A stretch of DNA of 64,000 nucleotides from an uncultured Actinomycetes bacterium. GTDB lineage: Bacteria; Actinomycetota; Actinomycetes; S36-B12; CAIYMF01. Position numbers and translations under genes: made by a program. The stretch spans positions 116,264 through 180,263 of the forward strand of contig CAWAEB010000006.1 of the NCBI GenBank assembly GCA_963781015.1, written 5' to 3'. The notes under the pieces were generated by a model, which did not search any database, was not told the origin of the DNA, and was given only the letters and a program-made list of their open reading frames with translations. Shown piece by piece: positions 55,897 through 63,928 of the stretch; within the stretch, counting starts at the first letter, position 1, and each line of letters opens with the position of its first letter.

Positions 55897-56129
55897 GCGA
55901 GGACCCTCCCACGACCTACGTCCGATGACCCTCTCCGCGTCCGGTGGAGGTCCCCGGCGGCCCCACCGACCGCCATCCGGATCCCGGACGACGCAACACC
56001 AGGTCGCCGCTAGGCTCTCAGACCAGTCCAATGGCCACAACCGAGCCGAACGTGCGCACCGGTGGGACGGACGTCGGCGACAAGACAGGATGTGCGGAGT
56101 TGCAGCCAGACCGAGCGGCAGAAGCGATC

Positions 56130-57929
56130 ATGAGCACCGGGTCGAGCACCGGGTCGATCACCGGGCTGACCCCCGGGTTGACCATTGATCGGGAGCCCGT
56201 CGCCGATCCGCTCTGGTACAAGGATGCAGTTGTCTACGAGTTGCACGTCAAGGCGTTCTTCGACTCGAACGGCGACGGGATCGGCGATCTCGCCGGGCTG
56301 ACCCAGAAGCTGGACTACCTGGCCGACCTGGGCGTCAACACGATCTGGCTCCTGCCGTTCTATCCCTCACCGTTCCACGACGACGGCTACGACGTGGCCG
56401 ACTACCGCGACATGCACCCCGCCTACGGGAACCTGGCGCAGTTCCCGGAGTTCGTCCGGGCCGCCCATGACCGGGGCCTGCGGGTCATCACCGAGCTGGT
56501 CATCAACCACACCTCCGACCAGCACCCGTGGTTCCAGGCAGCGCGCCGGGCGCCCAAGGGCTCCCCGGAGCGCGACTTCTACGTGTGGTCCGACGACCCG
56601 GAGCTCTACGCCGGCACGCGGATCATCTTCACCGACACAGAGCGGTCCAACTGGACCTACGACGAGGAGGCGGGTCAGTTCTTCTGGCACCGCTTCTTCA
56701 GCCACCAGCCCGACCTGAACTTCGACAACCCGGCGGTCCGTGCGGAGATCCTTGACATCCTGCGGTTCTGGCTCGATATGGGCGTCGACGGGTTCCGGCT
56801 GGATGCCATTCCCTACCTGATCGAGCGCGACGGCACCAGCAATGAGAACCTGCGCGAGACCCACGAGGTCATCAAGGAGCTGCGGGCAGGCCTGGACGAG
56901 CAGCACGAGAACCGGTTGTTCCTGGCCGAGGCCAACATGTGGCCCGAGGACGTCCGCGAGTACTTCGGCGACGGCGACGAGTGCCACATGGCCTACCACT
57001 TCCCGCTGATGCCGCGCATGTACATGGCGATCGCCCAGGAGGACCGCCACCCCATCGTCGAGATTCTGGCGCAGACCCCGGACATCCCGGAGTCCAGCCA
57101 GTGGGCGATCTTCCTGCGCAACCACGACGAGCTCACCCTCGAGATGGTCACCAGCAAGGAACGCGACTACATGTGGTCGACCTACGCTGAGGACACCCGG
57201 GCGCGCATCAACCTAGGGATCCGGCGTCGGCTCGCGCCGCTGATGGAGAACGACCCCGAGCGCATCAAGTTGATGAACAGCCTGCTGCTGTCCATGCCCG
57301 GCTCCCCGTTCATCTACTACGGCGACGAGATCGGGATGGGCGACAACTTCTACCTCGGCGACCGCGACGGGGTGCGCACGCCGATGCAGTGGACCCCGGA
57401 CCGCAACGGCGGCTTCTCCCGGGCCGATCCGCAGGGCCTGTACCTGCCGCCGATCATGGACCCGATCTACGGCTACGAGGCGATCAACGTCGAGGCCCAA
57501 CTTCGCGAGCCTGCCTCGCTGCTGAACTGGACGCGGCGGATGCTGGCCGTGCGCAAGACCTCGCACGCATTCGGCCGTGGGGAGTTCACGTTGCTGCATC
57601 CGGGCAACCGCAAGGTGCTGGCCTACATCCGCACCCACGGCGACGATGTCGTGCTCTGCGTGGCCAACGTCAGCCGGTCGGCCCAAGCGGTCGAGCTCGA
57701 CCTGTCGGCGTTCGCCGATCGGGTGCCGGTGGAGATGCTTGGGCGCAACGCCTTCCCGCCGATCTCGCATCGGCCCTACGTGCTGACACTGCCGGCCCAC
57801 GGCTTCTTCTGGTTCAAGCTGATGACCGACGTCGAGGCCCCGAACTGGCACGAGGACCGACCTGCGGTGGAGTCCCTGCCGCTCGTCGTGTTCTTCGCCG
57901 GTTGGTCGAGCCTGTTCCGCGAGCGCATT
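56130..57929 (+). CDS. treS: trehalose synthase (maltose alpha-D-glucosyltransferase) domain of a treS-mak fusion; 3' boundary approximate
   Basis: Motifs present: [58 protein letters not shown] and [13 protein letters not shown]. The start is the ATG at 56130 or at 56031. The same frame stays open to 58256, but it turns into Arg/Gly-rich non-genic text after about 57930. Confidence 0.85.
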
Positions 57930-57930
57930 C

Positions 57931-59574
57931 CTGTGTGGCGAGCAGGCATGGCCGACCAAGCTGCGCGCCAGGTTCGAGACCGACCTGCTGCCCGCCCACG
58001 TCGCCCGGAGTCGTTGGTATGGCATGCGGGGCGCGCCCATCGATCGAGTGGAGTTGGGCGAGCATGCCGTGCTCGAGGACGAGGGACACACGTGGTTGCT
58101 GGTGGTGGTGCAGGTGCACACCGCGGAGCAGTCCGAGCGGTACTCCCTGCCCCTGGCACTGGGTTGGGAGGATACCGAGGAGGAACGGATCAAGCAGATC
58201 GCCGGTGGCGCGGTCGCCCGGGTGCGCCAGCAGGCACATGTCGGCCTGGTGGCTGACGCCACCTACGACGAGGCCTACTACCGCGCGCTCGTCCGCGCGA
58301 TCCGGGCCGGGCGCACCTTGGACACGCGCACGGGACAGATCCGTTTCGTCGCCGCTGCCGGGTTCAGCGAGTTGGTCCCTGAGATCCCCACCGACCTGGC
58401 CCCCAACCGGTTGCCTGGCCTGGGCAGCAACAGCAACAGCGTGCTCGGCGATGCGCTCTTCCTCAAGACGTTCCGCCGGCTGCGCCCGGGGATGAACCCC
58501 GAGCTCGAAGTCGGTCGCTTCCTCACCGAGGTCGCCAGGTTCGACCGGTGCGTGCCAGTGGTGGGGCACGCCGAGTACGTCGACAAGGACGGCGAGGTCA
58601 CAGTCCTGGCCCTGCTCCAGACCCACATACCGAACCAGGGAGACGTCTGGACCTTCACCGTCGACGAGCTCACCAGGCATCTCGAGGATTCGCTGACCAC
58701 GCCTGCCGCTGGCACCACCCCGATCATGCCGGCCCGCTCGACTGCCGACGGTGTCCCCAACGAGGCCATCAGCACCACGACCTCGATTCCCATCATCACC
58801 AGTGCGGAGCACCCGCCGAGCCTGGACGGTTACCAACCGCTGGCTCGTAGTCTGGGCCGTCGGACCGCGCAGCTGCACGCTGCGCTGACCCTGCGCACCG
58901 GGGATCCGGCCTTCGATCCGGAGCCTGTCGTCCAGGCGGACATAGAGCACTGGGCCGAGCTGACCCGCCAGGACGTAGCTGCGACCATGTCCGCCCTGGA
59001 GGCGCACCTCGACCAACTGCCCGCCGGCCTGGCACCGCTGGCATCGGAGCTGCTCGGCACCGCACCCGCCCTGGTCAACAGGATCGATGAGTGGGGGCAC
59101 CACCGGGCAGCCGGGGTCAAGACCCGCTACCACGGCAGCTACCACCTCGATCAGGTGATGCTCGTGGAGAACGATGTGGTGATCATGGACCTCGAGGGCG
59201 AGCAGGGCGTCTCGCTGGCGCGGGCGCGGGCGAAGAGTTCAGCGCTGCGCGACGTTGCCTCCATGCTGCGCAGCTTCGACTACGCACGCCGGGCCGCTCA
59301 GGACCGGGCCACCCAGCACGAGGGTGACCTGGAACGCATGGCCCCGGCGGCCGCAGCCTGGCTGGATTCCACGAGGGGGTCCTTCCTTGCTGGATACCGC
59401 GAGGAGGCTGTCGCCGCCGGTCTCTACGCGGACGATGCAGCCTTCGACGCGCAGCTCCCTCTCGTCAGCCTCTTCGAGCTTCAGAAGGCGCTGCAGGAAC
59501 TACGCTTCGAGCTGGACCACCGGCCCGAATGGGTCGGTATCCCGCTGCACGGGCTGGCAGCGATGATCCAGTAG
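57931..59574 (+). CDS. mak: maltokinase (Mak/Pep2) domain, in the +1 frame relative to treS; 5' boundary approximate
   Basis: This frame reads ...[32 protein letters not shown]..., comparable to M. tuberculosis Pep2 LPWSDWLSRQRWYAGRNRE. It also reads [28 protein letters not shown]...[15 protein letters not shown], comparable to RVHGDLHLGQVL...IDFEGEPG...LRDVAGVLRSFEYA. The first ATG (58024) falls inside the conserved RWY motif. Confidence 0.75.
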
Positions 59575-59972: not shown

Positions 59973-60569
59973 CTACGGGGCGGCGATGGTGAGATCGCGC
60001 TCCCTGGCGAATCCCCGCGGCTCCGAGATCAGTCCGTCGAGTGCTGCGACCGGTATCACCAGCAGCTGTCCGAGGATGGTGGAGACCTCCCAACCCAACG
60101 AGCTGTTCGGGTCCGCACGCCCCTGGACCCGTGCGAGCAACGCGCTCAGGGGGATCCCCATCGCGTTGCCCCACATCATGGTGCGGGTGGCGACCAGGAC
60201 GCACAGGGCCTGCTGCTCGCCGTACTGCTCGATGACGGCTTGCCAAGCGCCTGGATCAGGATGTCCGCGGGTGTCGGCGTAGTGCTGGCCGAACGCGACG
60301 GCGGGCAGTTGGTCGTCCGGGACACCCTCCGTGATGCCGCCGAGCAGGTTCCGCACCTCGTCGCGGTCCATCCCTGCCTCCAGCGCATACCTCGTGTGGG
60401 CGTGGGAGCACAGTTCGCAACCGTTGACTTCAGTGACTGCCAATCTGATTCGTTGCGCGAACACCTGGTTGCAGGTGATGTCGGCCCTGCGCATCCGCAC
60501 CACGGTGCGCACGGCCTGCGCGGTGATGCCGTAGGTGTCGCGCACGGAGTAGTGCTTCTTTGCAACCAT
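59973..60569 (-). CDS. carboxymuconolactone decarboxylase (AhpD-like) family protein
   Basis: The start is taken at the ATG at 60569 (MVAKKHYSVRDTYG). It has the AhpD-type CxxC motif VNGCELCSHAH. Confidence 0.8.
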   Translation of the reverse strand: MVAKKHYSVRDTYGITAQAVRTVVRMRRADITCNQVFAQRIRLAVTEVNGCELCSHAHTRYALEAGMDRDEVRNLLGGITEGVPDDQLPAVAFGQHYADTRGHPDPGAWQAVIEQYGEQQALCVLVATRTMMWGNAMGIPLSALLARVQGRADPNSSLGWEVSTILGQLLVIPVAALDGLISEPRGFARERDLTIAAP

Positions 60570-60731
60570 GTGCACACTGGATGGTCTCACGCGCAAGCGG
60601 GCACCGGACCCGATCGCGCCCTTCTGGATGCCTTCCCCGGAGTTCTGGACCACGCGCCGCGGAATGGACCGGGTGACTGCGGACCCGCCCACCACAAGGC
60701 TCGAGACCGCGCGGTCGCTGCACGCCAGCGG

Positions 60732-60759
60732 TTGCCCGACGCGCGTTGCCGCGTATGTT
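60732..60759 (+). promoter_or_regulatory. candidate sigma-70-type promoter for the repeat-protein/JmjC operon
   Basis: TTGCCC (60732-60737), a 16-nt spacer, then TATGTT (60754-60759). It lies about 37 nt upstream of the ATG at 60796. This is a pattern match only. Confidence 0.25.
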
Positions 60760-60795
60760 GGGCACGTCACATCCCACTACCCGGAGGCATCTTCA

Positions 60796-61107
60796 ATGAG
60801 CATCAGCGACGAGGACATCACGACCGCCGCAGCTTCGGCAGGCGAGGGCACCGCCGACGGCGGAGCCAACCCCGCAGGCCACGACGGCGGCGCAGACGGC
60901 TCAGCAGGCGAGGGCACCGCCGACGGCGGAGCCAACCCCGCAGGCCACGACGGCGGCGCAGACGGCTCAGCAGGCGAGGGCACCGCGGATGGCGGAGCCA
61001 ACCCCGCAGGCCACGACGGCGGCGCAGACGGCTCAGCAGGCGAGGGCACCGCGGATGGCGGAGCCAACCCCGCAGGCCACGACGGCGGCGCAGACGGCTC
61101 AGCTTGA
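60796..61107 (+). CDS. acidic Gly-rich repeat protein (14-aa leader + 4 identical 22-aa units AGEGTADGGANPAGHDGGADGS)
   Basis: GGAGG (60783-60787) lies 8 nt before the ATG at 60796. The frame is open across all four 66-bp repeats. The only repeat-to-repeat DNA differences are at wobble positions. The TGA stop overlaps the TTG start of the next gene. The antisense frame shares the same wobble positions and cannot be excluded on that criterion alone. Confidence 0.5.
   Translation: MSISDEDITTAAASAGEGTADGGANPAGHDGGADGSAGEGTADGGANPAGHDGGADGSAGEGTADGGANPAGHDGGADGSAGEGTADGGANPAGHDGGADGSA
60838..61101. repeat. 66-bp x 4 head-to-tail tandem repeat
   Basis: The unit is GCAGGCGAGGGCACCGCCGACGGCGGAGCCAACCCCGCAGGCCACGACGGCGGCGCAGACGGCTCA. 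Units 1 and 2 are identical to each other, and units 3 and 4 are identical to each other. The two pairs differ only by GCCGAC versus GCGGAT. Confidence 0.97.
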
Positions 61108-62375
61108 GCACGAGTCCCGGGGGCGGGCCGGGAGACCGGCCCGCCCTGGCCCGTTGCATCAGCATCGACCCCGCGGAGTTCGCCGAGTCCTACTGGGGCC
61201 GCCGACCGCTGCTGTCGTGCGCCGCGGACCTGGGCGGGGGCTTCTCTGATCTCTTCTCCGCGGCTGCGGTCGACGAGCTGGTGGCCGATCGCGCATTGCG
61301 CACGCCGTTCGCGCGGATGGCCAAGGAGGGCGTGCTGCTCGCGCCATCTCGCTACACCGCATCGGGCGGGCTGGGGGCCGAGATCGCCGACCAGCTGGCC
61401 CCGGAGCAGGTACTCTCCGAGCTCGCGGCCGGTTCCTCGCTGGTGTTGCAGGGCCTGCATCGCACCTGGCCCCCGCTGGCCGAGTTCACCCGAGACCTGG
61501 TCGCCGACCTGGGGCATCCGTGCCAGGTCAACGCGTACATCACCCCAGCGTCCTCCCGGGGCTTCGACCCGCACTACGACATCCACGACGTCTTCGTCCT
61601 CCAGATCCACGGCGAGAAGCACTGGACGATCCACGAGCCGGTGCATCCCGATCCGCTGCGCTCCCAGCCCTGGTCGCAGCGCAGTGCCAAGGTGGCTGCG
61701 CGGGCGGAGCAGGAGCCGGCGATCGACGCGACCTTCAGGCCTGGCGATGCGCTCTACCTGCCGCGAGGGTGGATCCACTCGGCCACCGCACTGGGCGGCA
61801 CCTCCATCCACCTGACGATCGGCGTCCCGGCCTACACCCGGCACGACATCGTCGAGGCTGCGGTGGCACTCGTCGCGCAGAACTCGGCAACCACCGAGGC
61901 CGCCGAACTGCGCGGGTCGCTGCCGGTCGGCGCCGGGCACGCGGACCCAGATGCGCTGCGCCCCAGCGTGCAGGCGACGCTGGACGCCCTGATCGCCGCA
62001 CTGGAGCGGCTCGGTTCCGACCCGGACCTCGCCGAGCGGATCGCGACCGACCTGAGGTCCCGTCTCGCCGCAGACACCCGGCCCGAACGGGTGCGCCCCC
62101 TGGCCGCCCTCGACGCACTCGCCGACCTGGGTGCCCGAACGTCCGTCGGGCTGCGCGACGGTCTTCCGGCCCGCATCGAGGACGTGGACGGACAGGTGGC
62201 CGTCATCGTGCCCGGCAAGCGGATCACGCTGCCCGCTGAGGCCCGTCCCGCACTCGAGTTGGCGCTGAGCGGATCCCCGGTACGGGTCGGCGACCTGCCG
62301 GAGCTCGACGCCGACTCCGCGCGGGTCGTCGTACGGCGACTGCTGCGTGAGGCAGTCCTTGTGGTGCGGGCGTGA
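61104..62375 (+). CDS. JmjC / cupin_4 domain protein (ribosomal-oxygenase-like Fe(II)/2-oxoglutarate oxygenase)
   Basis: It reads PALARCISIDPAEFAESYWGRRPLL...LVLQGLHRTW...GFDPHYDIHDVFVLQIHGEKHW...LYLPRGWIHSA, giving an HxD...H facial triad, plus a C-terminal winged-helix-like region. The only in-frame start near the conserved N-terminus is the TTG at 61104 (TTGA overlap with the upstream stop). Confidence 0.8.
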   Translation: MSTSPGGGPGDRPALARCISIDPAEFAESYWGRRPLLSCAADLGGGFSDLFSAAAVDELVADRALRTPFARMAKEGVLLAPSRYTASGGLGAEIADQLAPEQVLSELAAGSSLVLQGLHRTWPPLAEFTRDLVADLGHPCQVNAYITPASSRGFDPHYDIHDVFVLQIHGEKHWTIHEPVHPDPLRSQPWSQRSAKVAARAEQEPAIDATFRPGDALYLPRGWIHSATALGGTSIHLTIGVPAYTRHDIVEAAVALVAQNSATTEAAELRGSLPVGAGHADPDALRPSVQATLDALIAALERLGSDPDLAERIATDLRSRLAADTRPERVRPLAALDALADLGARTSVGLRDGLPARIEDVDGQVAVIVPGKRITLPAEARPALELALSGSPVRVGDLPELDADSARVVVRRLLREAVLVVRA

Positions 62376-63271
62376 CCGCGACCGGCGACTGGCTGCCGTG
62401 CAGCGCGCGATCGCGCGACCGAGGGGACCCGCTGACCGCCACGGCGGGCCGTGGGGAGCGCTGGCTCCTGGTCGAGATCGACGGTGGTTGGGGATCGCAC
62501 GCCTTCCTCGACTCCCGGCTCGACCCCGCCCTGGCCGAGCGCCTGGTCGCACGGGTCGAGGGCGCCGGCATCCGGCCGCTCGCGATCCGGCGCACGGGCC
62601 GTCGGGCCGACGAACGCCGTGCGCAGTCGTCCTACGCGTGGGCCCTGGTCGATGCACGACCGGGCCACGAGCAGGTCCGGTGGGGCCGAGCGCAGGACCA
62701 GGCCGAACTGCTGACGGTCCCGCTGGACGGCTCCGCGGGCGTCCCGTCCAGCGATCCGGTCATCTGCGTCTGCACGCATGCACGCCACGACCAGTGCTGT
62801 GCCGTACGCGGCCGGCCACTGGTCGCGGCGTTCGCACGGGAATACCCCGAGCTCACCTGGGAGTGCTCACACCTCGGCGGTGACCGGTTCGCCGCGACGA
62901 TGATGGTCTTCCCCGAGTCGCTGATGTTCGGCCGGGTGGGTGCCGAGGACGCCGTCAGCCTCTATGAGCGCTACCGCGCCGGGCGGGTCGACCCGCGGCA
63001 CTTCCGCGGCCGGGCCTCGCTGTCGAACATCACGCAGGCCGCGCAGGCCTTCGCGGCGCAGGCCTCGGGCGATGACCGGATTGCTGCCTACCAGCCGGTC
63101 GCTGAGATCCCGGCGGACGGGGGCTGGCGGGTGGAACTGGACCACGAGTCAGCACCCGTCGTGGTCGACATCGGCACGACACAGTCCGAGCCGCTGCTCA
63201 GCACCTGCCGCGCCACGCACGCCGTGCCGGTCCGGGAATTCACCCTCCGGTCGATCCGTCCCGCCGGGTAG
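62372..63271 (+). CDS. sucrase/ferredoxin-like (thioredoxin-like [2Fe-2S], Apd1/Aim32-type) family protein
   Basis: The GTG at 62372 overlaps the JmjC stop (GTGA). It has motifs VCVCTHARHDQCCAVRG and CSHLGGDRFA. Confidence 0.8.
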   Translation: MTATGDWLPCSARSRDRGDPLTATAGRGERWLLVEIDGGWGSHAFLDSRLDPALAERLVARVEGAGIRPLAIRRTGRRADERRAQSSYAWALVDARPGHEQVRWGRAQDQAELLTVPLDGSAGVPSSDPVICVCTHARHDQCCAVRGRPLVAAFAREYPELTWECSHLGGDRFAATMMVFPESLMFGRVGAEDAVSLYERYRAGRVDPRHFRGRASLSNITQAAQAFAAQASGDDRIAAYQPVAEIPADGGWRVELDHESAPVVVDIGTTQSEPLLSTCRATHAVPVREFTLRSIRPAG

Positions 63272-63424: not shown

Positions 63425-63928
63425 ATGCCCGAGTTCACGCCCGAGATGGCCACCGCTTTCGTCCACCAGGCTGTTCCGGCGGTCGGACGGCTCGGTGTCG
63501 TGGTCACGGCGATCACGCCGGGGACGGTCAGCCTGCGCGTCCCGATCGAGGGCAACGCCAACCACATGGGCACCATGTACGCGGGGGCGTTGTTCGCGCT
63601 CGCGGAGCTGCCCGGTGGCCTGATCCCGTTGGCCGCTCTGGGGGTCGGGCGGTACACGCCCATCGTGACCGGGATCGAGATCCAGTTCCTGGCCGCGGCG
63701 CACACGGACGTCACCCTCACCGCGCACATGGGCGTTGCCGAACTGCGCACGCTCGCCGAGCAGGCGGATGCCGAGGGCAGGTCGAGCTTCACCCTGGATC
63801 TGCAGGGTGAAGACACGCGTGGCCGGACCGTGGTCAGCAGCCGTGCGCACTACCAGCTGCGACCCAGCCGCGAACGCGACCAGAAGCGCGATCATGCCTC
63901 AGATGGCCGATCGATCCGCGATTCCTGA
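63425..63928 (+). CDS. hotdog-fold thioesterase (PaaI / YiiD_C-like)
   Basis: 167-aa ORF reading GTVSLRVPIEGNANHMGTMYAGALFALAELPGG...IEIQFLAAA. The last ~25 aa are probably a low-complexity tail. Confidence 0.7.
   Translation: MPEFTPEMATAFVHQAVPAVGRLGVVVTAITPGTVSLRVPIEGNANHMGTMYAGALFALAELPGGLIPLAALGVGRYTPIVTGIEIQFLAAAHTDVTLTAHMGVAELRTLAEQADAEGRSSFTLDLQGEDTRGRTVVSSRAHYQLRPSRERDQKRDHASDGRSIRDS

Follow-up and report, generated by a model that had tools for sequence, protein, structure and literature searches.

Does the short repetitive reading frame that directly precedes a JmjC oxygenase gene in an uncultured Actinomycetes bacterium encode a protein and, if it does, is that protein what the oxygenase modifies? 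The window in which it lies, that is, the whole stretch of DNA analysed, is 64,000 nucleotides long and carries three adjoining genes on the same strand: the repeat frame, the JmjC gene and a gene for a sucrase/ferredoxin-like (Suc_Fer-like) protein (Table 1). Protein hydroxylation in bacteria has scarcely been explored, and the only known role of JmjC enzymes of the ribosomal-oxygenase type is, to our knowledge, the modification of ribosomal proteins. An initial annotation had proposed that the repeat protein is either a multi-core RiPP-type precursor or the dedicated substrate of the JmjC enzyme.

Table 1 Features of the repeat protein/JmjC/Suc_Fer-like locus, with positions in the window.
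Feature	Position	Strand	Basis
Putative promoter: -35 TTGCCC (60732-60737), 16-nt spacer, -10 TATGTT (60754-60759)	60732-60759	+	Sequence reading
Shine-Dalgarno (SD) GGAGG, 8 nt 5' of ATG 60796	60783-60787	+	Sequence reading
Small acidic repeat protein, 103 aa	60796-61107	+	ORF reading, orthologues, codon entropy
Leader-like N-terminal segment MSISDEDITTAAAS, 14 aa	60796-60837	+	Counts over 76 orthologues, alignment
Four tandem 66-bp units, each encoding AGEGTADGGANPAGHDGGADGS	60838-61103	+	TRF
JmjC_2 (ribosomal-oxygenase-type) Fe(II)/2OG oxygenase, 423 aa, TTG start	61104-62375	+	Pfam, PDB search, AF2/Foldseek
Suc_Fer-like (PF06999) protein, 299 aa, GTG start	62372-63271	+	Pfam, 73 orthologues
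Putative [2Fe-2S] site C134-x8-C143 ... H167-x3-D171	in 299-aa protein		Sequence motif

The predicted product of the small ORF has the composition MSISDEDITTAAAS + 4 x AGEGTADGGANPAGHDGGADGS + A, without a single basic residue among its 103. The SD, ATG, 14-aa leader and four identical 22-aa units of the initial annotation are all present: TRF returned 4.0 copies of a 66-bp unit with 99% matches, and units 1+2 differ from units 3+4 by two synonymous changes only (GCC GAC vs GCG GAT). The same plan recurs throughout the family. Position-wise counts over 76 orthologues give the leader consensus M-[SAT]-[IL]-[ND]-D-D-D-[IM]-T-[TS] followed by a variable linker, with M-x-I-N-D-D-D-I-T-T almost invariant, and a logo of 232 units gives the almost invariant E-G-x-A-D-G-G-[AS]-N-P-x-G-H-D-G-G-A-D-G-[ST]-A. 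Orthologues are 60-122 aa long and carry 2 to 5 near-identical units of 21-22 residues, joined by variable linkers of 0 to 5 residues. The Asn, Pro, His and Asp residues of the unit had been put forward as candidate targets of hydroxylation, a list that holds less well for His: Q or S stands in its place throughout L082, and some Micromonosporaceae-like sequences and some from metagenomes have Q, R, V, S or N there. Since the repeat His is not universal, the target residue is uncertain.

Before any function is assigned, the frame has to be distinguished from an open GC-rich tandem DNA repeat, a regulatory upstream ORF, or a tail of the JmjC gene split off by an indel. Spurious ORFs are many in high-GC DNA, the exact 103-aa product has no record as a called gene, neither Pfam nor NCBIfam returned a match to the small protein even at E<=10, and a few database entries read through from the repeat into JmjC. 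However, the codon-position entropy over 229 units is 0.24/0.13/1.17 for positions 1/2/3: third positions vary while the amino acids are almost invariant, which shows strong purifying selection on this frame. Amino-acid entropy is 0.35 in the coding frame vs 0.51-1.38 in the other five, the value of 0.51 belonging to the reverse frame with shared wobble positions. In 150 independent loci the ORF keeps this frame, its SD and a stop codon of its own, and a purine-rich SD stands at equal spacing to the start in nearly all orthologous small-ORF loci. The repeat lies in a frame separate from that of JmjC, and the N-terminus of the JmjC orthologues is itself conserved (M-x3-5-RG-x-x-DRPAL[AS]RC, in agreement with the TTG start) and begins after the repeat; the repeat is therefore not a frameshifted JmjC tail, and the read-through entries are visibly frameshifted. 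We accordingly rejected the N-terminal tail, the non-coding repeat and the regulatory upstream ORF on the JmjC N-terminus, the recurring frame and the codon entropy, and regard this group of readings as highly improbable. As judged from these codon and frame patterns, the small ORF is a real gene. Natural repeat-JmjC fusions were also rejected: long JmjC homologues carry C-terminal tails and no N-terminal repeats, and the long matches to the repeat profile are frameshifted read-throughs. The family is one of microproteins that have no Pfam or NCBIfam model and often go uncalled as genes, an example of how annotation misses conserved small repeat ORFs in high-GC genomes.

Upstream of the SD, the putative promoter has a counterpart, TTGCCC-N16-TAGGTT, in both of the closest relatives (L001, L002). 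A promoter/terminator scan with E. coli-type consensus, which was uninformative in this high-GC DNA, returned no promoter match, and Rfam gave no match over 60300-61300. For a 5' UTR hairpin in Microbacteriaceae, RNAalifold gave no structure and pair counting found conservation without covariation.

The three genes are tightly joined, as the initial annotation had noted: the TGA of the small ORF (61105-61107) overlaps the JmjC start codon at 61104, and the TGA of JmjC overlaps the Suc_Fer-like start at 62372. Across the family, 52 of 78 small ORF/JmjC junctions are 4-nt NTGA overlaps and the rest are mostly TAGTG, TAATG or TGATG; by this layout, the genes of the module are translationally coupled. 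Whether the repeat ORF and the ferredoxin-like gene recur among relatives had been left for comparison, and both do. The small ORF, with its variable number of units, lies directly 5' of the JmjC orthologue in 80/80 genome loci (76 small ORFs found by tblastn and four divergent ones read by eye). In the reverse direction, JmjC lies directly 3' of the small ORF in 70/71 metagenome loci found via the small ORF, the sole exception having degenerate repeats. The linkage between the two genes is obligate in both directions. The genome loci come from Microbacteriaceae, Cellulomonas, Brachybacterium, Nocardioides, Rhodococcus, Aldersonia and Nanopelagicales; the full trio is also found in two Mycobacterium lineages, and Salinispora has the small ORF and JmjC pair without the Suc_Fer-like gene. 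At least four orders are spanned (Micrococcales, Mycobacteriales, Propionibacteriales, Micromonosporales, Nanopelagicales). The Suc_Fer-like gene follows in 73/80 loci from genomes and 27/34 from metagenomes (~80-90%), and its absence from about 10-20% of loci indicates that it is not essential to the core of the module. No further gene family, including any protease, exporter or other tailoring gene, is common to at least 8 of 82 neighbourhoods. This conservation gives good support to a functional module made up of the small protein, the hydroxylase and, in most loci, an Fe-S protein. Pfam, NCBIfam and the searchable literature hold no description of the small protein or of the trio, only generic precedents, in keeping with the initial remark that no such system had been described; Iyer et al. 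2010 make no mention of the module.

The enzyme belongs where it had first been placed. A Pfam search matched the 423-aa protein to JmjC_2 (PF08007, E 9e-28) and Cupin_8 (E 1.5e-9), and the PHYD...H motif is present. In a PDB sequence search the best match is NO66 (E 5e-23, with the phmmer alignment covering query residues 100-399), then MINA53 (3e-17), with YcfD and RmROX ranking after them (E 2e-6). Foldseek with the AF2 model (pLDDT 77) gave full-length matches to NO66 (E 1e-22, TM 0.64), MINA53 and YcfD. In all 18 orthologues compared, H157, D159, K172 and H225 are unchanged. The iron triad of the JmjC double-stranded beta-helix, H157-Y-D159 and H225, matches the PHYD and H of NO66 in the alignment, and K172, the 2OG-binding Lys on the strand that follows HxD, aligns with the NO66 Lys in 'egrKlw'; the Fe/2OG catalytic site is intact. 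According to DSSP, the 246-340 region contains helices and a b/a domain follows at 347-421, and the model has the three-domain architecture of ribosomal oxygenases, with JmjC, helical dimerisation and C-terminal winged-helix domains. A conserved loop of low pLDDT at residues 80-96, with invariant G88, G89, G91, A92, E93, D96 and Q97, would fit a substrate lid.

Human NO66/RIOX1 and MINA53/RIOX2 are histidyl hydroxylases of RPL8 and RPL27A. They are the nearest solved relatives of the module enzyme by sequence, fold, three-domain architecture and PHYD...K...H site, and both modify His residues that lie in Gly-rich loops, which we count as a further likeness. The identity is only 23-25%, however, and their substrates are ribosomal proteins encoded elsewhere, whereas the module enzyme in every case has a tandem-repeat microprotein, unrelated to those substrates, co-encoded and translationally coupled with it; nor are NO66 and MINA53 known to have an Fe-S partner. 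YcfD/RoxA from E. coli and RmROX from Rhodothermus marinus, which hydroxylate L16 at Arg (Arg81 of uL16), represent this three-domain family in bacteria; they are more distant than NO66, and we know of no co-encoded peptide or Suc_Fer-like neighbour for either.

The third protein matches PF06999 with E 1.3e-19 and 71.5 bits (gathering cut-off 34.9), and its CTHARHDQCC and SHLGGD motifs are present as first described. Apd1/Aim32 thioredoxin-like ferredoxins share this domain and bind their cluster through CX8C...HX3H (PMC8482512). The module protein has the CX8C, as C134...C143, and the His of an H-x-G-G-x motif, but the second motif reads H167-L-G-G-D171, with Asp in 73/73 orthologues, in place of HX3H. 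It also differs in context, being bacterial, operonic and encoded beside a JmjC enzyme, and in having additional invariant residues: C10, H136, H139, C142, C165 and C279 are conserved in all 73 orthologues together with C134, D140, C143, H167 and D171. The AF2 model is confident (pLDDT 82, pTM 0.83), with pLDDT <50 in the loops with the putative ligands, and neither Foldseek with this model (E <0.1) nor a sequence search gave a PDB match. Of the earlier label 'thioredoxin-like [2Fe-2S] protein', the family and the CX8C thus stand, whereas fold search did not confirm the fold and the ligand motif deviates; the protein is probably an accessory [2Fe-2S] protein.

Of the two ideas in the initial annotation, the substrate/enzyme pair is favoured and a secreted RiPP is less likely. 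We judge the chances about evenly divided that the locus is a dedicated intracellular substrate/hydroxylase operon with an Fe-S accessory, conserved across Actinomycetota; that the peptide is the substrate we infer, as we do the modified residue, the way of docking and what the Fe-S protein does. The RRE-like order of elements in the C-terminal domain of the enzyme, a possible peptide-binding feature, and the precedent of BipG and CzlI, JmjC enzymes that hydroxylate peptides encoded alongside them, suit this reading as well as the RiPP reading below. In such an operon, translational coupling would yield the NO66-like hydroxylase together with a small cytoplasmic protein that is very acidic and intrinsically disordered. 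The N-terminal I-N-D-D-D-I-T-T of this small protein would act as a leader-like docking element, which may bind the C-terminal winged-helix/RRE-like domain of the enzyme, and each of the 2-5 units would offer an invariant G-H-D-G-G-A-D-G to the active site, where a side chain would be hydroxylated, the likeliest being His or the adjacent invariant Asp. Ribosomal oxygenases hydroxylate Arg as well, and we therefore count the Arg found at the repeat His position in favour of hydroxylation. The product would be a multiply hydroxylated acidic protein, with a likely role in metal binding or in O2/Fe/2OG-dependent signalling. The Suc_Fer-like protein might keep the iron of the enzyme in the reduced state or see to its supply; alternatively, its target might be the product. 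In vitro, JmjC hydroxylases are not known to depend on a protein reductant, which makes this helper role conjecture. There is a parallel in FIH (factor inhibiting HIF), whose targets in an ankyrin-repeat substrate are Asn, Asp or His residues at corresponding positions of many repeats. FIH, a distant fold match in Foldseek, pairs a JmjC enzyme with a tandem-repeat substrate, but it belongs to a different JmjC subfamily and acts on folded repeat domains encoded elsewhere, with no dedicated co-encoded substrate known. If the peptide is the substrate, the module would be a new post-translational modification system in a compact, testable cassette of two or three genes, a bacterial model for NO66-like substrate recognition, and the first functional context for bacterial Suc_Fer-like proteins.

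The small protein is obligately coupled 1:1 to the enzyme, which would fit a substrate as well as a partner. As a partner, it would be an acidic Fe(II) metallochaperone or buffer for the JmjC and Fe-S proteins, or a pseudo-substrate or regulator of a hydroxylase that targets ribosomal proteins such as uL2. All characterised ribosomal oxygenases known to us, the closest characterised enzymes among them, act on ribosomal proteins, and the module enzyme could therefore do so too, though its genomic context points rather to the co-encoded repeat protein. A partner would also suit the extreme acidity, the richness in Asp, Glu and His, the DGGA[DN] half-units and the tolerance of substitution at the His position. 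When uL2 motifs were checked, A-N-P-x-G-H-D-G-G of the repeat proved weakly like the loop M-N-P-V-[DE]-H-P-[HF]-G-G-G, which we take to contain or adjoin the NO66 target, but this likeness is short, of low complexity and found post hoc. The near-invariant 21-residue unit and the separate N-terminal motif fit enzyme recognition better than metal buffering, and we consider a non-substrate partner unlikely, though still deserving of weight.

If the protein is instead a true multi-core RiPP, unlinked proteases would cut out the hydroxylated repeats, and the released product would be a conserved small molecule. This might be a beta-hydroxy-Asp/His metallophore or cofactor, in whose redox chemistry or iron release the Suc_Fer-like protein would take part. 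The leader, the iterated identical units of variable copy number and the short precursor-like gene next to the enzyme all look like a RiPP locus. In the AF2 model, the C-terminal domain of the enzyme has the element order b-b-b-(b)-a-(a)-a, which defines RRE-like folds reported fused to PF08007 JmjC domains (PMC12710340). JmjC Fe/2OG tailoring enzymes that hydroxylate a side chain of a ribosomal peptide from the same cluster are also on record: BipG, an ornithine hydroxylase, for biphenomycin (PMC12707348) and CzlI, a Phe hydroxylase, for curacozole (PMC11575548). These enzymes sit in multi-enzyme clusters with other tailoring enzymes, and in the case of biphenomycin with a transporter and a peptidase, unlike the two or three genes of the module; their products are narrowly distributed, and CzlI, as a further difference, is YxbC-like. 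The biphenomycin and curacozole precursors are single-core. In the module, by contrast, the 'core' is iterated and near-invariant across orders, unlike typical RiPP cores, no protease, exporter or tailoring gene is conserved beside it, and there is no conserved cleavage site. Downstream of one Mycobacterium locus lies a FecCD/ABC/periplasmic-binding-protein transporter, a neighbour that would suit a released product but was seen only once. We regard a true RiPP as rather improbable.

A broader possibility, to which we assign a low probability, is that the module makes a new, phylum-wide ribosomal product whose units are hydroxylated by the NO66-like JmjC enzyme at the beta-carbons of His, Asp or Asn. 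Whether left intact or excised, these units would serve as a conserved peptide or cofactor that binds metal, and the Suc_Fer-like [2Fe-2S] protein would be the redox or iron-release partner. This would in effect be a ribosomal counterpart of beta-hydroxy-Asp/His siderophore chemistry; the product would found a new class of modified peptides and be the first substrate of a bacterial ribosomal-oxygenase-type enzyme that is not a ribosomal protein.

The window's sequence reads as the initial annotation had it, with a Shine-Dalgarno element and ATG ahead of a small ORF made of a leader and four identical units, and with both downstream genes starting in stop/start overlaps. Its domain calls are borne out by Pfam searches (JmjC_2, PF08007, E = 9e-28; Cupin_8; Suc_Fer-like, PF06999, E = 1.3e-19). 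The module pairs a JmjC hydroxylase of predicted ribosomal-oxygenase type with a tandem-repeat microprotein encoded beside it, and its third member is a Suc_Fer-like protein. Repeat units 3 and 4 differ from units 1 and 2 solely by two synonymous changes.

Features of the three-gene module and its flanks in the window
Feature	Position	Strand	Details
CMD/AhpD-like gene	59973-60569	-	divergent; flanks the trio
Shine-Dalgarno GGAGG	60783-60787	+	read from sequence; ATG of small ORF at 60796
Small ORF	60796-61107	+	MSISDEDITTAAAS, four identical copies of AGEGTADGGANPAGHDGGADGS and a terminal A; 103 aa
Tandem repeat	60838-61103	+	TRF: 66-bp unit, 4.0 copies, 99% matches
JmjC protein, 423 aa	61104-62375	+	TTG start at 61104 overlaps TGA of small ORF
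Suc_Fer-like protein, 299 aa	62372-63271	+	GTG start at 62372 overlaps TGA of JmjC gene
DUF4442 hotdog-fold gene	63425-63928		flanks the trio

Elsewhere in the window, the Pfam domains of an alpha-amylase/trehalose-synthase-like ORF (55944-58256) stop near residue 623 of 770, and a 516-aa ORF without a Pfam match (58024-59574) overlaps it by 233 nt; the two ORFs could result from a frameshift or be one gene with two fused domains.

The linkage between the small ORF and the JmjC gene holds in both directions. A JmjC alignment searched against one genome per GTDB species returned 80 loci, and tblastn with the window's repeat protein found the small ORF directly upstream of the JmjC gene in 76 of them. 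The remaining four carry a more divergent version in the same place, read by eye, so that the short repeat ORF of varying copy number, whose recurrence in relatives had been raised as a question, precedes the orthologous JmjC gene in 80/80 loci. For the reverse test, metagenome contigs were scanned with small-protein motifs and loci were counted if 200 nt or more followed the small ORF: a JmjC gene lies directly downstream in 70 of 71. The sole exception, locus L159, has degenerate repeat units, and its small ORF may be a decaying remnant. The junction between the two genes is a 4-nt NTGA overlap in 52/78 loci and mostly TAGTG, TAATG or TGATG in the remainder.

Hosts of the 80 loci include many Microbacteriaceae genera, Cellulomonas, Brachybacterium, Nocardioides, Rhodococcus, Rhodococcoides, Aldersonia and uncultured Actinomycetota. 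The two closest JmjC relatives (84-86% identity), from an 889-kb ENA contig and a Nanopelagicales MAG, have the same trio, with an upstream gene of 81 aa and three repeats in each. Database look-ups added the full trio in two Mycobacterium lineages and the small ORF and JmjC gene, without the Suc_Fer-like gene, in Salinispora; homologues of the small protein are also present in Actinoplanes and Phytohabitans. At L159 (141-392, contig RCNJ01021736.1), otherwise invariant unit positions are substituted (HDDGADG, GADGGADG), and the opposite strand has a CMD-like ORF. One locus only, in Mycobacterium sp. SMC-4 (CP079869.1, L084:7741-10183), has an iron-siderophore/B12-type uptake system (genes for FecCD permease, ABC ATPase and Peripla_BP_2) after the trio on the same strand.

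The small ORF is a genuine gene and is conserved. Over 232 units from 79 proteins, the unit consensus is E-G-[TPV]-A-D-G-G-[AS]-N-P-x-G-H-D-G-G-A-D-G-[ST]-A, with most positions identical in 228-232/232 units, and the N-terminal consensus is M-[SAT]-[IL]-[ND]-D-D-D-[IM]-T-[TS]. Nucleotide entropy is 0.24 at the first codon position, 0.13 at the second and 1.17 at the third; amino-acid entropy is 0.35 in the frame of the small ORF versus 0.51-1.38 in the other five, among which the reverse frame with shared wobble positions gives the 0.51. The low entropy at the first two codon positions and the lowest amino-acid entropy in frame indicate strong purifying selection on the protein. That the repeat might be a split N-terminal tail of the JmjC protein is ruled out, since all JmjC orthologues start M-x(3-5)-RG-x-x-DRPAL[AS]RC. 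Most genomes have three units, the window has four, metagenomes reach five, and many database entries of ~60 aa have two. The unit His is not universal: some lineages have R, Q, V, S or N in its place, and at locus L082 it is Q or S throughout; the Asp next to it and the DGGADG segment do not vary. Some lineages (L028:2681-2983, also L074, L077, L081 and L082) have further short acidic repeats inserted between the canonical units, for example three copies of DGGATDRGADGSA or runs of DGGADG.

No Pfam or NCBIfam model matches the small protein even at E <= 10, and source records either label it "hypothetical" or lack the gene call. Searching 1.84 billion representative proteins with a profile gave only 109 matches, each of them either a similar short protein or a frameshifted read-through. 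In the searchable literature we found no paper with its motif and none describing the trio. JmjC hydroxylases are known in the biphenomycin (PMC12707348) and curacozole (PMC11575548) RiPP clusters, whose architecture differs from that of this module.

The JmjC protein is predicted, from sequence and model, to be a catalytically competent hydroxylase of the ribosomal-oxygenase type. Its best match in a PDB sequence search is human NO66 (E = 5e-23, query residues 100-399 aligned), followed by MINA53 (E = 3e-17), a Rhodothermus ROX protein, YxbC and E. coli YcfD. Foldseek with the AF2 model (pLDDT 77) likewise gives a full-length match to NO66 (E = 1e-22, TM 0.64), with MINA53 and YcfD next and FIH distant. 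The iron-triad residues (H157, D159, H225) and K172, the 2OG lysine, are invariant and have aligned counterparts in NO66. Two regions may bear on peptide binding. One is the loop of residues 80-96, which is conserved yet poorly modelled (G88, G89, G91, A92, E93, D96 and Q97 invariant). The other is the C-terminal domain, modelled in the order strand-strand-strand-(strand)-helix-(helix)-helix, which defines RRE-like peptide-binding folds; folds of this kind were recently noted on PF08007 JmjC proteins (PMC12710340). Leifsonia orthologues (P0013, P0030, P0039, P0044, P0048 and others; loci L009 and L025) have an acidic C-terminal extension of 30-60 residues with the conserved terminal motif SPDGERSATADFGTA[ST]AT, and at these loci the Suc_Fer-like gene starts ~150-200 nt further downstream.

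Downstream of the JmjC gene, the Suc_Fer-like gene is present in 73/80 genome loci and in 27/34 of the metagenome loci whose sequence extends far enough, which bears on the earlier question whether a ferredoxin-like gene co-occurs; it is absent from Salinispora-type loci. Its orthologues share invariant C10, C134, H136, H139, D140, C142, C143, C165, H167, D171 and C279. The protein shares CX8C with Aim32/Apd1, whose HX3H (PMC8482512) is replaced by HX3D. It had been labelled thioredoxin-like [2Fe-2S]: the family assignment stands, and a confident AF2 model (pLDDT 82, pTM 0.83) has no PDB fold neighbour at E < 0.1 and its sequence no PDB match, so the label is one of Pfam family and not of PDB fold or sequence. 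Within PF06999, this bacterial branch seems to have no characterised structure.

A dedicated pair of substrate and enzyme would be in keeping with the two-way obligate linkage, the translational coupling, the separate conserved N-terminal motif and the near-invariance of the iterated units. The nearest characterised relatives of the JmjC enzyme hydroxylate His in Gly-rich loops, and the repeat unit offers G-H-D-G-G. Since the unit His is replaced in some lineages while its Asp neighbour and DGGADG are not, several target residues are possible; the Arg variants deserve attention, Arg being, like His, a residue that ribosomal oxygenases hydroxylate. A classical secreted RiPP is argued against by the invariance of the "core" and by the 82 neighbourhoods, which have no conserved protease, exporter or additional tailoring enzyme and no further gene family common to at least eight of them; the small protein itself has no signal peptide, basic residues or hydrophobic core. 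We therefore favour an intracellular modified protein, the alternative being a conserved, cofactor-like product whose maturation would use proteases encoded elsewhere. The small protein could also have a non-substrate role, as a metallochaperone or pseudo-substrate. Its unit (A-N-P-x-G-H-D-G-G...G-E-G, 60838-61103) has a weak resemblance to a universally conserved loop of uL2, M-N-P-V-[DE]-H-P-[HF]-G-G-G-[EN]-[GH] (uL2 motifs verified), within which the NO66 target His216 presumably sits; this match is short, low-complexity and post hoc, and we give it little weight.

An Rfam search of the region returned no match. Upstream of the small ORF, Microbacteriaceae loci (for example L004:2683-2745 and L010:2665-2727), unlike the window, have a TAnnnT -10-like element and, ~10 nt beyond it and ahead of the Shine-Dalgarno element, an inverted repeat or hairpin of the conserved form CGGC(N4-6)GCCG. 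In it 75% of cells pair, with no covariation; a 5' stem-loop or an operator are possible roles.
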